Notes: generated by a model from the letters alone, not told the origin. A stretch of 64,000 nucleotides of DNA from Paracoccaceae bacterium (GCA_029265455.1 JAJUJF010000001.1:32040-96039), one strand, 5' to 3'. Shown: positions 563 through 36,206, counted from the first letter of the stretch. Made by a program: numbers and translations.

Positions 563-1996
563 CTATTCCAACTGCCGGGCCGCCGGGCCGGTTCCGCGGG
601 CCGCCTCGCCCCGTTCCCTCCGTGCGATCCTCAGCACCAGTCCCTCGACACCCACCACCTCGGCCTCGTCACCCGCCACGAACGGCTCCTCCCCCGTCGC
701 CTGCCAGCGCTCGCCATGGACCTGCACCGCGCCGCGACCCTCCTGCCATTCGAGCACGATCGCCCGCGAGCCGATCATCTGCTCGCGCCCCGTCGTGACC
801 GGCTGCCGCCGCGAGCCCACCGCCATCCGCGCGACGAGGAGCGCGAAGGCGAGACTCGCGACGCCGAGGGCCGCGATCACCGGCCAGGAAAGCGCGAGGC
901 CCGGCATGTCGGTGTCGACGAGCAGTGTCGCCCCGAGCGTGATCGCCACCGCCCCCCCGATGCCGAGCACCCCGAACGAGGGGGTGAAGGCTTCCGCGAC
1001 GATCAGCGCCACCCCGAGCAGCATCAGTCCCGCCCCCGCAAACGTCACCGGCAGCACCGAAAGCGCGTAGAACCCGGTCAGCAGGCTGATCGCGCCGATC
1101 ACGCCGGGGAAGATCGCGCCCGGATTGATGAACTCGAAGATGATCCCGTAGATGCCGACCATCATCAGGATCAGCGCGACATTGGGATCGGTCAGCACCG
1201 AGAGCAGCCGCGTCTTCAGCCCCGGCGGCCGCTCCTCGACCTCAAGCCCGGCCGTCGCCAGCGTGACCGTCCTGCCGCCCGCCTCGACCTCCCTCCCGTC
1301 CGCGCCTTCGAGCAGCGCCTCCATGTTCGCCGCGACGAAGTCGATCGCGCCGATCTCCGCCGCTTCCATGGCGCCGAGACTCTCGGCCCGCCGCACCGCG
1401 CGTTCGGCCCAGTCGGCATTCCGCCCCCGGAGCGTCGCCAGTCCGCGGATATAGGCAACGGCGTCGTTGATCGCCTTGGCCTCGCTCGCGGTGCCGGGGG
1501 CGAGGTCCTCGCCGTCCCCGCCATCCTCCTCCTCCGCCCCTCCGAACGGCGATCCGCCACCGCCGAGCTGTACCGGCGTCGCCGCGCCGATATTCGTCCC
1601 CGGCGCCATCGCCGCGACATGAGAGGCATAGAGGATATAGGTCCCGGCACTCGCCGCCCGCGCGCCCCCCGGCGCCACCCAGCCCGCGACCGGCACCGGC
1701 GAGGCGAGGATCGCCCGTACGATCTCGCGCATCGAGGTGTCGAGCCCGCCCGGCGTGTCCATCCGGATGACGACGAGCCACGCCCCCTCCGCGCCTGCCT
1801 CCGCGATCCCGCGCACGAGATAGTCCGCGCTCGCCGGCGTCACCGCGCCTTCGAGCGTCAGCACCACCGCGCGGCCGGAAGCCGCCGGTTCCGTCTGCCC
1901 CGCGCCCGGTCCGACCGCCCCCGCGAGCACGAGAAGCGTGATCACGAGAAGCCGCAGGCCCGGCACCGCCCGTCGAAGAAGCCTCATGTCCGGCAT
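563..1996 (-). CDS. nfeD: NfeD family protein, long form with ClpP-like protease domain
   Basis: DTPGGL...AASAGTYI motifs, multi-TM segment, C-terminal OB-like VHGERWQA; paired with SPFH gene. Start 1996 or 1987. Confidence 0.9.
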
Positions 1997-2093
1997 ATAG
2001 CGCGGCCCGTCCGGATGGTAAGGCGCGCCTCCCGCGGGCGGAGCCCGCCCCGCATGAGCGCGAGGCAACCCGGCTCCGCATCCGCCGGCGAAC

Positions 2094-2993
2094 TCAGGGC
2101 TCGCGGAGGATGCCCTGCGGAAGGTCTCGCCCAGCGAGGTAACGGCTCATCCAGTCCACGGCCTCGGCGATGCCGCCGAAGGGATAGAGGTGAAAGAGGA
2201 CCGTCCCGAGGCTGCCGCCGGCGATCTCGGGAACAAGACGGTCAAGAAACCGCTCCGGCCCCACGCGCTGCAGGAGGTTGACGAGGGAGAAGCCGTACCG
2301 GCGCACGACCCTCGCCGACGAGGCCGCGCCGAACTGGCGGGCAAATCTCAGAAGCCTGCCGGCATCCGCCGGGCCGGGAACGCCGATCCTCACCGGGCAT
2401 CCGATTCCCGCGCTGCGCAACTCCCGGATCCAGCGCAGGACGGCCTCCGCGTCGAAGCCGAACTGCGTGGTGATCTCCACCGAACAGCCCTCCGCCTCGA
2501 GGAAGGCAATTTTCCACTTCAGCGATTTCCAGAGCGTCTCGCTGTCGATCTTCGGATGGCCTTCGGGATAACCTGCGATGCCGACATGGCGGATGGCATG
2601 ACGCCGCAGGACGCCGCTCTCGAGCAGCACGAGCGAATCCGTGAAGGGTCCCGCCGGCTTCGCCGGATCGCCTCCCACGAAAAGGAAGCGCGAGGGCGCC
2701 GCCCCCCTGATCAGCGCGCCGAGCAGATCGTCGAGATCCTCTTCCGACCGCAGCCGGCGCGAGGAAATGATCGGCACCGGCTCGAAGCCGCAGGCCCGGA
2801 TCACCCGCGCGGCATTGATGCGCTGTTCGTGGTTCTCGTTGCCGAGGAACGCGATGTTGATCGGCGTTCCTTGCGGAATCACGTGGCGCGCGGCCTCAAG
2901 CTGGGCGATGTCCTTGCCGGTGACCTCGAGCGAATAGCCTCGCTGACGCTCCGGCGCGGCTGCCGTTCGGGAAGAATCCTCGCGATCCTGCAT
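2094..2993 (-). CDS. metF: Methylenetetrahydrofolate reductase family protein (short MetF-like)
   Basis: GGD, GIAGYPEGHP, ITTQFGFD and VRIGVPGPA motifs. Confidence 0.82.
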   Translation of the reverse strand: MQDREDSSRTAAAPERQRGYSLEVTGKDIAQLEAARHVIPQGTPINIAFLGNENHEQRINAARVIRACGFEPVPIISSRRLRSEEDLDDLLGALIRGAAPSRFLFVGGDPAKPAGPFTDSLVLLESGVLRRHAIRHVGIAGYPEGHPKIDSETLWKSLKWKIAFLEAEGCSVEITTQFGFDAEAVLRWIRELRSAGIGCPVRIGVPGPADAGRLLRFARQFGAASSARVVRRYGFSLVNLLQRVGPERFLDRLVPEIAGGSLGTVLFHLYPFGGIAEAVDWMSRYLAGRDLPQGILREP

Positions 2994-3165
2994 CGTCAGC
3001 CCCGCCCGATCAGCCGGCGGAGAAGTCGGCGCGCGACCCGCCATGACCCGTCCGGCAGGGCCGCGCCGGAACCTCCGCCGTTCCCGTGCCCGGCTGGAAC
3101 ATTGCCGGAAGCATACGCGGCGCGGCCGCCCCGTGATCCTGCATCGGCCATTCCGCCCCGGCCGC

Positions 3166-33301: not shown

Positions 33302-33889
33302 ATGCGGAGGTGGCTTCTTCTTGTCGCGCTAGTGGCGGCGAGTTCATGCAGTTCGACCGTCGAGAAGCCGCCGAGCACGGTCGTGGATGCCTGCCGGATG
33401 CAGGTGGAGCGCCCGCACTGGTTCAGGGCCATGCGCGAGACCGAGGCGAGATGGGGCGTGCCCGTGCATGTCCAGCTCGCCACCATCTCCCGCGAATCCA
33501 GTTTCGTGGCAGACGCCCGGCCGACGCGGCGGGAGCGGCGTTTCATCTTCTTCACCCGGGAGGTGCCGCGCTCCTCCGCCTATGGATACGCGCAGGCGAT
33601 CAACGGCACCTGGGAATGGTATCAGCGCGAAACCGGACGGTACCGCGCGAGTCGCACCAACTTCGCCGACGCTGCCGACTTCATCGGCTGGTACATGGCG
33701 AAGACGCAGCAGCGGAACGGCATCCCCGTGCACGACGCCTACAACCAGTATCTGGCGTATCACGAGGGCCATACCGGCTACGCGCGCGGCAGTTACGGCC
33801 GAAAGGGCTGGCTGACTCCCGTGGCCCGCGACGTCCAGAACTGGGCGAATCGTTATGAAGCCCAGCTCCGCACCTGCTCCTTCGGCTGA
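33302..33889 (+). CDS. Lipoprotein with lytic transglycosylase (SLT-like) domain
   Basis: Lipobox-like AASSC; ISRESSF catalytic-Glu motif; SSAYGYAQA; YLAYHEG. Confidence 0.82.
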   Translation: MRRWLLLVALVAASSCSSTVEKPPSTVVDACRMQVERPHWFRAMRETEARWGVPVHVQLATISRESSFVADARPTRRERRFIFFTREVPRSSAYGYAQAINGTWEWYQRETGRYRASRTNFADAADFIGWYMAKTQQRNGIPVHDAYNQYLAYHEGHTGYARGSYGRKGWLTPVARDVQNWANRYEAQLRTCSFG

Positions 33890-33920
33890 TTTCTCCACCT
33901 CGCGGGTGCGCGCGGCCTGA

Positions 33921-34892
33921 TCAGGCGGATGCCACCGGCACCCGCCCGTTCACGGTATCCACGGTGTCCTCGGTGCGTCCCGTGCAGTCGCCTGCCGGAT
34001 TGCGGGGCCAGCCCGGGGCAAGTTCGATCCGCTGGCGCGGCGGCGAGATGCGGCGCTCCCGCATCGCTTGGTCGACCCGCTGCAGGATCTCGTCGCGGCA
34101 GTCGAGGTCGCGGTCGAAACGCGGCACCCAATAGCGCAAGGCATACCGGATCCCGTCGGCGCCATAGGTCAGCACCCGCACGTCCGGCTTTGGTTCCTGA
34201 AGAATGGTCCGCGCGCCCTGCATCACCTCGCGCAGCATCGACCGCGCCACCGCCACCGGCACGCCATGATCGAGCGTGATCTCGACCTGCGCCCGGTACT
34301 CCCGCCGCGGCGCGCTGTAATTGGTCAGCCTCTGCCGCGCGATCTGACTGTTCGGCAGGATCATGTAGGTCGAATCCCGCGTCATCAGCCGGGTCGTCCG
34401 CCAGCCGATGTCGATCACGCGTCCCCGCGCCACGTTCTCGATCTCGACCCAGTCACCGATCCGGAAGGGTGCCTCGAGCCCCAGCGCGATCCCGGAAAGC
34501 GTATCCGCGACGACATTCCGGATCGCGAAGCCCATAAGGGCGATCAGAAGACCGGAACTCGCCAGCGCACCGGTCCACCCCTGACCGAGGAAGAGCATCA
34601 CCGTGGCAATGAAGGCGACGACGAAGAGGCCGGCCCGTATGAGCTGCATGTGCAGGCGAGGCATCGGGCGGCTCCGCTTCGCCATGCGACCGAAACCGAT
34701 CTCGACCATGCGCGAGAACAGCCAGGCAATGGTGAAGTTGCTCAGCCCGCCAAGGGCGAGCCGCAGCCCATCAAGCCCGTCGTCAAGTCCGAGTATCAGC
34801 TTGATCGCAGGGTAGAACCCCGTAAGGGCAAGGCTGATGGCCGCAGCCACGGCCGGCCAGAGCAGGGTCCTCCACTCCCCCCGCTCCCTCAT
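33921..34892 (-). CDS. mscS: Mechanosensitive ion channel, MscS family
   Basis: N-terminal TM helices, PFRIGDWVEI...GRVIDIGWRTT...LPNSQI. Confidence 0.9.
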   Translation of the reverse strand: MRERGEWRTLLWPAVAAAISLALTGFYPAIKLILGLDDGLDGLRLALGGLSNFTIAWLFSRMVEIGFGRMAKRSRPMPRLHMQLIRAGLFVVAFIATVMLFLGQGWTGALASSGLLIALMGFAIRNVVADTLSGIALGLEAPFRIGDWVEIENVARGRVIDIGWRTTRLMTRDSTYMILPNSQIARQRLTNYSAPRREYRAQVEITLDHGVPVAVARSMLREVMQGARTILQEPKPDVRVLTYGADGIRYALRYWVPRFDRDLDCRDEILQRVDQAMRERRISPPRQRIELAPGWPRNPAGDCTGRTEDTVDTVNGRVPVASA

Positions 34893-35170
34893 GTTGGCTT
34901 CCTCCCCGGGAACCCTCCTGCAGGCGGTTCGACGGTTCTTCGCCCTCGCCCGTCATCCCGCGAACGGAAAACCGGAGTGACGAGTGAGGCGCGGCAGAAG
35001 GGGCAGTGGCTCGCGGCTGCCCGCGGCAGCGGCGTGCCACAGGCGCGGCAGCTCGTTCCGGACCGCGGGACAGTGATCGTCGCGCGACACTTCGGACAAC
35101 GCGACACAGCGGACCGGGGCAGCTCGACGCCGCACTGGAAACAGGAACGGAAGGAAACGGAATACGACAT
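34889..35170 (-). CDS. Double zinc-ribbon protein, 93 aa
   Basis: Four CxxC motifs (CFQC, CPKC, CRAC, CPFC) in two ~31-aa repeats; RBS GGAG; stop overlaps mscS start (ATGA). Confidence 0.78.
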   Translation of the reverse strand: MSYSVSFRSCFQCGVELPRSAVSRCPKCRATITVPRSGTSCRACGTPLPRAAASHCPFCRASLVTPVFRSRDDGRGRRTVEPPAGGFPGRKPT

Positions 35171-35313
35171 GGCTCTCTTGCTCCGGACAGGATGATGAAA
35201 ACGCGATGCTGCCCGGAGCGCTGGAGCGCACGACTCAGATCATGGCGACCACGCTCCGGGCAATCCATCTGCCTTTCGAAGGCTCCGACGTTCCGGAATT
35301 CCGGATGGGCGGC

Positions 35314-35754
35314 TCATCGCTTCTCCCCCGATCGGTCGGCAGCAGGCGAGACCCGGATCACCGTCAGCTTCCGCGTCTCGCCGTCTCGTGTTTCCCAGGT
35401 GAGGGACGCGCCCTCACGCAGTCCGATCAGCGCGACGCCGATCGGCGTCATGACCGACGTCCGCCCCTTGTCGATATCAGCATCCTGGGGCAGGACGAGG
35501 ACCACTGTATGCTCGCGGCCGGTAGTCTCGTCCCGGAACACGACCTCCCGGCCCAGAGCGACGATATCGGGGCGCAATCGCGGGGGGCTGACAATGCGCG
35601 CCCGTGCGATCTCGCCAAGGAGCTTCTCGGCAAGCTCCGGCGTTCGGCGCATGGCGCCGGTCGCCAGGCTCTCGAGCTGGTCGGCCTGGTCGGAGTCAAG
35701 AACGATCGGCGCGGTCCGTCGGGCAACACGCGCTGATTGGCTGCTGGCCGCCAT
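35314..35754 (-). CDS. rnk: Nucleoside diphosphate kinase regulator (GreA/B family)
   Basis: LLGEIARARIV, LVLPQDAD...GRTSVMTPIGVALIGLREG. Confidence 0.92.
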   Translation of the reverse strand: MAASSQSARVARRTAPIVLDSDQADQLESLATGAMRRTPELAEKLLGEIARARIVSPPRLRPDIVALGREVVFRDETTGREHTVVLVLPQDADIDKGRTSVMTPIGVALIGLREGASLTWETRDGETRKLTVIRVSPAADRSGEKR

Positions 35755-35812
35755 GATCTGTCTGCTTTCTGTAAATGGCCGGCGGAAAACGGATACCGGC
35801 GAGCGGAGAATG

Positions 35813-35995
35813 TTATGCCGCAGCCGGACCGGGATCGGTATCGTCCGGCGTCTCCGACGGCGTGTGACTGGTTGTGTTACGGCGATCCTGCAGCGTGACG
35901 ACCTTCCCCTCGCCGAGCGGCCGCTCCGGGGTCGGCTCCTGTTCGGCGGAGAGCTCCGAACCTCTGGACTTCAGAAACTCCACGATGCTGCGCAT
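35813..35995 (-). CDS. 60-aa hypothetical protein
   Basis: Strong RBS GGAGG before ATG; first ORF behind a sigma70-like promoter; no family recognised. Confidence 0.55.
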   Translation of the reverse strand: MRSIVEFLKSRGSELSAEQEPTPERPLGEGKVVTLQDRRNTTSHTPSETPDDTDPGPAAA

Positions 35996-36050
35996 GATGA
36001 TCCTCCGGCAACGTCGCCGTTCGCTGATTGAGACCTGATGCTGGAACCAA

Positions 36051-36093
36051 CCCCGAGCGGGCGGTCAGCGAGTGCCGCCTATCCCGCTCGGGG
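36051..36093. other. Long hairpin in the leader of the 60aa-rnk-DZR-mscS unit
   Basis: CCCCGAGCGGG (36051-61) / CCCGCTCGGGG (36083-93) plus inner GCGG/CCGC pairing. Confidence 0.65.
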
Positions 36094-36145
36094 AACGAGG
36101 CGGTTCAGCAGTCGACCTGCTGCCCGCGTGCCTGGACCGCCAACG

Positions 36146-36192
36146 ATTATCATAATGTCGTGAAAGGTAGGCATCTCCCCGTGGAAAGTCAA
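36146..36192 (-). promoter_or_regulatory. Sigma70-type promoter with a palindromic operator at the predicted start site
   Basis: Minus strand TTGACT-N17-TACCTT (36192-36164); palindrome ATTAT-C-ATAAT at 36146-36156. Confidence 0.55.
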
Positions 36193-36206
36193 CGCGCTTG
36201 CCCCGC

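Follow-up and report, generated by a model that had tools for sequence, protein, structure and literature searches.

Both elements that meet at the locus described here, the double zinc-ribbon fold class and the MscS family of channels, are already known. To our knowledge, and in the literature searched, channels of the MscS type are regarded as tension sensors complete in themselves, with modulatory domains fused in cis. Small proteins that modulate membrane transporters are represented by the AcrZ-AcrB, KdpF-KdpABC and MgtS-MgtA pairs, in which the small partner is a single-TM peptide. Leader peptides are short and are not conserved as folded domains. Escherichia coli YfgJ (PDB 2jne) is a free-standing small zinc-ribbon protein. 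Small free-standing zinc ribbons are also found among the Haloferax C(P)XCG zinc-finger micro-proteins, such as HVO_0758 (PMC10716476). Coupled upstream ORFs and leader peptides of bacteria are covered by a survey of uORFs in Sinorhizobium meliloti, in which the uORF of a mechanosensitive channel is non-overlapping and only 5 aa long (PMC13285730). The first-pass annotation of the DNA considered here knew of no described soluble zinc-ribbon partner of MscS channels, and none was found in the literature searched, in which no dedicated soluble MscS partner of another kind and no link between Rnk and MscS genes were found either.

The locus lies within a 64,000-nt stretch of DNA from a Paracoccaceae bacterium (GCA_029265455.1, JAJUJF010000001.1:32040-96039), referred to here in its entirety as the window; coordinates are counted from its first letter, and the features listed below are on the minus strand. 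The gene order is rnk, a 143-nt spacer, a 93-aa ORF and a 323-aa channel ORF. The first conserved gene of this cassette, rnk (35314..35754), encodes a nucleoside diphosphate kinase regulator with a GreA/GreB-like fold, the product scoring 128.6 bits against NCBIfam NF004396 (above the equivalog cut-off of 109) and matching Pfam PF01272 and PF14760. The spacer between rnk and the ribbon gene contains a leader hairpin, CCCGGAGCG...CGCTCCGGG (35212..35260), with a 2-codon mini-ORF, ATGATCTGA, in its loop (35235-35243), followed by a Shine-Dalgarno sequence, GGAG (35181..35184), that lies 10 nt 5′ of the ribbon ATG and is kept in relatives. The gene for the 93-aa double zinc-ribbon protein (ZR/DZR) occupies 34889..35170, with ribbon 1 corresponding to residues 10-28 (nt 35087-35143), ribbon 2 to residues 41-59 (nt 34994-35050), and residues 61-93 forming a basic, poorly conserved tail. 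Within the 3′ end of the ribbon ORF a second Shine-Dalgarno sequence, GGAGGA (34900..34905), can be read, and the two genes share an ATGA stop/start overlap (34889..34892) in which the ribbon TGA is at 34889-34891 and the channel ATG at 34890-34892. The MscS-family channel of 323 aa, with one extra N-terminal TM segment, extends over 33921..34892, and nothing 3′ of it is conserved in the loci compared.

No sigma-70 promoter and no intrinsic terminator were found in 33700-36100, nor was an EcfG-type promoter found near the cassette. Upstream of rnk there is a 60-aa acidic, Pro-rich ORF (35813-35995, minus strand) that is kept in the close clade only (L006 and L007), and before it a TTGACT-type -35 box and a ATTATGATAAT palindrome can be read by eye (36130-36200, minus strand). 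A role in anti-phage defence was rejected, PADLOC having returned no defence-system match for the ribbon protein, the channel or Rnk.

The 93-aa ORF is a real protein-coding gene under selection, one that annotation pipelines usually miss. Its product begins MSYSVSFRSCFQCGVELPRSAVSRCPKCRATITVPRSGTSCRACGTPLPRAAASHCPFCRASLVTPVFRS and carries CxxC motifs at residues 10-13, 25-28, 41-44 and 56-59, which form two CxxC-x11-CxxC ribbons spaced 31 residues apart; by inspection, 12 of 20 residues are common to positions 10-29 and 41-60. Against Pfam DZR (PF12773) it scores 28.8 bits, just above the gathering cut-off of 27.3. The closest channel homologues, at 80-81% identity, are in two loci syntenic with the window (L006, from a Rhodobacterales MAG, and L007), where rnk and the channel gene are separated by an uncalled gap of ~445 nt that contains a 93-codon ORF with eight Cys, the same SD-ATG arrangement and the same 4-nt overlap. 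Cys 10/13/25/28 and 41/44/56/59 are all kept there, as are the LPR-A-S-CP-CR loops, while the protein as a whole is only 46-53% identical to that of the window. By the Nei-Gojobori method, residues 1-63 have a dN/dS of 0.12-0.24 and the tail one of 0.37-0.64, and the Cys codons show synonymous TGT/TGC changes among relatives. The spacing GGAG-N10-ATG is invariant in the window and these two loci and is kept in a third, L008. The first-pass description of a double CxxC-CxxC protein of 93 aa ending in an ATGA overlap on mscS is therefore confirmed from the sequence, and the arrangement recurs in relatives.

Initial searches pointed elsewhere. A word-based search of the 93-aa protein against 5.8 billion sequences gave zero matches, a six-frame search of 60 relatives returned its own genome and one marginal match (E 4.7e-4), and the ORF was present in 0 of 36 same-genus genomes. 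These results are accounted for by gene callers skipping the ORF and by same-genus genomes lacking the whole cassette, and the reading of an orphan ORF was dropped on these grounds. That the ORF is spurious, a product of a 68% G+C genome, might be argued from its being skipped by callers in most assemblies, from the empty first protein search and from a GC3 (0.71) below that of neighbouring genes, but this is contradicted by the Cys conservation, the dN/dS values and the database relatives, and its probability is close to nil. The ORF is likewise uncalled in L006, L007 and L115-L118, a systematic annotation gap for the family.

Members of the ribbon family have one or two ribbons and share the core CxxC-x3-[LV]PR[AS]A-x2-3-RCPxC, with an optional second ribbon of the form CRRC-x4-PRAHAGxCPxC. 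In alignments A5 and A6, which comprise 26-27 sequences of 25-50% identity, C10, C13, P18, C25, P26 and C28 are invariant; the protein is Arg-rich, and R19 and R24 are invariant as well. A 3-sequence profile (A2) proved too narrow, recovering one locus each in genome contigs and metagenome contigs and only noise over 400 genomes of the class, and the wider A5 and A6 profiles were needed. When 1.84 billion representatives were scanned in full with HMMER, 25 matches were obtained, mostly of 70-115 aa and bearing the family signature. A profile search gave 54 database relatives; among those with a name, most are labelled 'hypothetical protein' and two bear generic names assigned automatically. 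Nine relatives that were scanned (P0121-P0126, P0128, P0131 and P0140) fall below every Pfam and NCBIfam cut-off, with 18-21.5 bits or no match against Pfam DZR. Elsewhere the family is rare, as judged from genomes sampled evenly across the class. AlphaFold models from 3 and 27 sequences were of low confidence (pLDDT 54 and 60). Foldseek comparison with the PDB gave nothing significant, and both it and a profile search of PDB sequences returned only generic zinc fingers; YfgJ matched the profile weakly (E 0.009). No similarity to DksA/TraR or to a known regulator was found in Pfam, NCBIfam or PDB profile searches. Cys4 zinc binding and the ribbon fold are putative, and by these profile comparisons the ribbon gene represents an uncatalogued family of small zinc-ribbon proteins that lacks a Pfam or NCBIfam model.

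The channel matches PF00924 with 68.3 bits (cut-off 20.2) and PF21082 with 35.9 bits (cut-off 21). These are its only Pfam domains, which agrees with the first-pass statement that no extra sensory domain is visible. Residues 55-285 align with residues 40-269 of E. coli MscS (2vv5, 6rld and others); MscS, MscK and YnaI chains all align, and the best match among solved chains is 7dlu (E 6e-16). The channel scores far below the NCBIfam equivalog cut-offs (81 versus 991 bits for MscK and 50.5 versus 321 for MscS) and is therefore placed in a separate MscS subfamily. Relative to E. coli MscS it has ~27 extra N-terminal residues with one more hydrophobic segment, and inspection aided by the structure alignment predicts four TM segments and a cytoplasmic N-terminus. 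Orthologues have a common N-terminus, M-x(5-8)-L-x-W-P, that runs from the overlapped ATG at 34892, which by this alignment is the conserved channel start; one public gene call (P0001, 309 aa) begins 14 codons downstream of it. The channel is an MscS-family member by sequence, and tension-gated conductance and a heptameric assembly are putative.

A ribbon ORF is located directly 5′ of the channel gene in 21 of 27 orthologous loci (channel identity >=49%), and at all 21 junctions the two genes overlap or are 1 nt apart. Sixteen junctions are of the [A/G]TGA type (4-nt overlap), three read TGAcATG and two are overlaps of 8 or 14 nt. From the overlap we infer, as the first-pass annotation did, that the ribbon protein and the channel are co-expressed stoichiometrically. 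Since the channel gene is preceded by a Shine-Dalgarno sequence of its own, its translation need not depend on that of the ribbon ORF; purine-rich SD-like motifs likewise precede the overlapped channel ATG in L114-L117. The minimum-free-energy fold pairs the channel SD; the SD-occluding fold is no better than that of shuffled sequences (z -0.93), and occlusion of the SD by RNA folding was rejected on this basis.

Carriers of the pair include Rhodobacteraceae genera and marine MAGs; outside the family it is present in Hoeflea sp. (where the ribbon gene is annotated, at 79 aa), Oceanibacterium hippocampi, Pararhizobium sp. IMCC3301, a widespread marine alphaproteobacterial MAG and G386, which belongs to another family. 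Several carriers of the cassette are cultured strains. Co-occurrence was assessed in 401 genomes representing 400 genera of the family. A channel orthologue is present in 16 of these genomes, upstream translation showing a ribbon ORF in most, and the ribbon gene was found in 15 by six-frame profile search (E<=1e-7), in 14 of them directly 5′ of the channel. The resulting table of 14 genomes with both genes (adjacent), 2 with the channel only, 1 with the ribbon only and 384 with neither gives a Fisher p of 7e-23, to be read with genera as samples that are not fully independent. The first-pass proposal of a trans-acting partner had been staked in part on conservation of the pairing, and the pairing and its tight junction are indeed kept across many genera. 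Of the two arrangements for which a neighbourhood survey had been proposed, separate pairs and fusions, the former were found at the 21 loci, and no natural ribbon-channel fusion was found among the HMMER matches. The larger HMMER matches were rejected as fusions, being unrelated multi-ribbon, TIR and Tim44 proteins.

In a maximum-likelihood tree of the channel, double-ribbon and single-ribbon forms group by clade and the ribbonless state is scattered, a pattern that indicates prolonged co-inheritance and recurrent loss. The channels of Rhizobiales and Rhodospirillales carriers fall within those of Rhodobacteraceae. In 40 same-genus genomes (with L039-L067 among the loci) the hspQ-SLT_4 synteny is kept and the rnk, ribbon and channel genes are missing beside it. 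Together, the nested carriers and the missing cassette at a kept hspQ-SLT_4 site suggest that rnk, ribbon and channel genes have been transferred horizontally as a unit, and in the lineage of the window this unit has the look of an acquired island. On this comparative evidence, the ribbon gene is inherited or transferred with one subfamily of predicted 4-TM, MscS-like channels in the Alphaproteobacteria.

Either gene may nevertheless be lost. Intact channel orthologues with a decayed or absent upstream ribbon gene are found in L008, L009, L070, L071 and L004, and L008, L009 and L010 (channel identity 68-70%) have no intact ribbon gene. In L008 (1724-1831) a homologous leader and SD are followed by a 35-aa non-ribbon ORF that ends GTGA on the channel start, and in L009 (3906-4004) a 32-aa non-ribbon ORF ends ATGA on the channel start. 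More generally, short non-ribbon ORFs of 32-38 aa still end on the channel start after ribbon loss. A CCDCPAALPRS remnant persists at the contig end in L010, and in L070 a decayed remnant (..RCPHI..) ends 2 nt before the channel start. De novo birth of a double ribbon between rnk and the channel in the clade of the window was rejected because more distant orthologues have a ribbon, which makes L008, L009 and L010 losses. Conversely, in G447, which retains rnk and a double ribbon, the channel gene has been lost and an aminotransferase gene comes next; in G632 (L099, about 1480-1695 and 1800-3047) rnk and a double ribbon are followed by a COG0523-like GTPase, with GAGKTT and CxCC/CICC motifs read from its sequence, which is a possible link with zinc homeostasis, seen once; and in Paracoccus denitrificans (L119:3001-3165) a 54-aa single-ribbon member follows cbbL-cbbS-cbbX and faces, in convergent orientation, an FAD-oxidoreductase-like gene, with no MscS gene nearby. 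These three cases, taken with the ribbonless channels, indicate that ribbon and channel can each exist alone, and as judged from gene content the partnership is not obligate.

Upstream of the pair, an rnk homologue is present in at least 13 related loci, whereas in at least seven ribbon-channel loci (L072, L078-L080, L082, L114 and L117) the fetched flank contains none. In L009 (3362-3886), L004 (802-1341) and L089 (2376-2843) the upstream position is taken by a distant Rnk-like paralogue with no Pfam match, and members of this MscS subfamily are preceded by rnk or an Rnk-like gene even in loci that lack the ribbon. The distance between rnk and ribbon gene is about 110-170 nt in most loci, with a spacer length that is nearly constant (about 140 nt). 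The leader hairpin found in this spacer has the form CCCGGRG...CYCCGGG; its loop, about 31 nt long, contains a conserved ATG-NNN-TGA mini-ORF, and the left arm resembles the Shine-Dalgarno sequence of that mini-ORF. Across nine diverse loci the 10-bp helix has 97.8% of its cells paired and compensatory changes in 4 of 10 pairs, and it outperforms 500 shuffles and all slid controls. The presence of sense-strand G-U pairs favours an RNA element over a DNA palindrome. Rfam has no family for the hairpin, as searched with the window and six related loci, and the element is a candidate new cis-regulatory leader. A ROSE_3 match (35312-35382, minus strand; 22.8 bits against a cut-off of 43, E 0.022) falls in the 3′ end of rnk and not in the hairpin, and is probably due to chance. 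A second palindromic motif of about 43 nt, CCCGGGCGGT-yAGGCGC-N4-GCGCCTG-...ACC-CCCGGG, is found 5′ of the cassette in many genera (L114:1609-1651, L115:1425-1467, L116:1216-1258, L117:1875-1917 and others) and is absent from the genome of the window; it may represent a terminator or some REP-like element.

Our best guess at function, held tentatively and at somewhat less than even likelihood, is an accessory one: the ribbon protein would act in the cytoplasm and dock on the channel. Both genes would be carried on one mRNA, and ribosomes ending the ribbon ORF would re-initiate on the channel start, so that a soluble Cys4-zinc protein would be released in a fixed ratio beside the cytoplasmic N-terminus of the channel. 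Docking might involve the N-terminal tail of the channel, its Arg-rich TM1-TM2 loop or the cage, and the docked protein might tune assembly or gating, possibly through its zinc or thiol redox state. An accessory role is preferred because no feature is more invariant than the link to the start of the channel, because the conserved non-Cys residues of the loops look like an interface, and because both genes move together; such a role would be dispensable, since several lineages have lost the ribbon gene. The lack of a ribbon-channel fusion among the HMMER matches and the channel's own SD count against it, as do the channel orthologues without an intact ribbon gene and the three ribbon genes that adjoin no channel. 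A stronger version, in which the ribbon protein would be a dedicated soluble subunit, one per protomer on the cytoplasmic face, with zinc occupancy or thiol redox setting gating or assembly, is doubtful. The idea of an obligate subunit is weakened by the five orthologous channels that lack an intact ribbon, by the ribbons of G447, G632 and P. denitrificans that adjoin no channel, and by the additional linkage of the ribbon gene to the upstream rnk.

The main rival, unlikely but to be taken seriously, holds that the ribbon protein is a regulator of nucleic acids or RNA polymerase that works with Rnk or on the leader hairpin and so governs how the cassette is expressed, the channel being cargo. 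Zinc ribbons commonly bind nucleic acids or RNAP, and the protein is Arg-rich with two invariant Arg residues; moreover, rnk precedes the ribbon gene in most loci and stays paired with it in G447 and G632 where the channel is missing, and a covarying hairpin lies between the two. However, the tightest and most invariant link is with the start codon of the channel rather than with rnk, which in most loci is over a hundred nucleotides away, the fetched flank of at least seven ribbon-channel loci contains no rnk, and no resemblance to DksA/TraR or a known regulator was detected. It is also conceivable, if quite improbable, that the ORF acts in cis as a leader, its translation unmasking the channel start or delivering ribosomes to it while the peptide matters little. 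The geometry of the junction is better conserved than the peptide, with the stop overlapping or abutting the main start at 21 of 21 junctions as expected of a leader ORF, the non-ribbon ORFs of L008 and L009 (about 35 and 32 aa) retain the GTGA/ATGA ending, with the same SD in L008, and the minimum-free-energy fold sequesters the channel SD; but that fold is not significant, and an ATGA is automatic when the second codon of the channel begins with A. A leader peptide would also be free to vary in sequence, whereas here Cys, Pro and Arg columns are invariant across 26-27 sequences, Cys codons change synonymously and dN/dS is as low as 0.12-0.24. A zinc buffer or metallochaperone-type microprotein that belongs to a stress cassette and has no specific tie to the channel would suit the eight Cys in 93 aa and the GTPase that follows the ribbon in G632, yet this neighbourhood was seen only once, the conserved LPRAA and RCP loop residues point to a specific interface, and the co-occurrence with the channel is left unexplained, which makes such a role very unlikely.

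A conserved, separately encoded zinc ribbon that travels with one channel subfamily is a candidate trans-acting partner, and its distribution suggests that these MscS channels have a dedicated soluble partner. If the stronger version, with one ribbon subunit per protomer, were true, no trans-acting sensory subunit would have been known before it for a mechanosensitive channel of bacteria, and the rnk-hairpin-ribbon-channel cassette would be a horizontally mobile stress module. If the ribbon serves only translation or Rnk, the locus would still illustrate cleanly how a coupled upstream gene can be conserved over long periods. The finding extends the catalogue by one microprotein family and one covarying leader RNA.

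Compared with known systems, the ribbon protein resembles the small zinc-ribbon proteins of Pfam DZR (PF12773) and DZR_2 in having two CxxC-x11-CxxC pairs, fewer than 100 aa, a soluble character and no further domain; the Pfam DZR models, however, lack the family's loops (LPRAA...RCPxC and PRAHAGxCPxC), and a fixed genomic coupling to MscS, which the ribbon family has, is not described for proteins of the DZR, YfgJ or HVO_0758 type. Coupled uORFs, like the ribbon ORF, end in ATGA on the main ORF and have a structured leader upstream, but the ribbon peptide, unlike leader peptides, is under selection at the protein level. With AcrZ, KdpF and MgtS the ribbon protein shares the properties of a microprotein tied to membrane transport and often missed by annotation, and it differs from them in being a soluble, predicted Cys4 zinc protein with a putative tie to the channel. 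Lastly, MscK, MscM, YnaI and the cNMP-binding bCNG channels have the same pore/beta/alpha-beta core (PF00924 and PF21082) as the channel of the window; in those channels the sensor is in cis, whereas the window channel is minimal (323 aa, one extra TM, no added domain) and its candidate modulator is a separate, putatively translationally coupled polypeptide.
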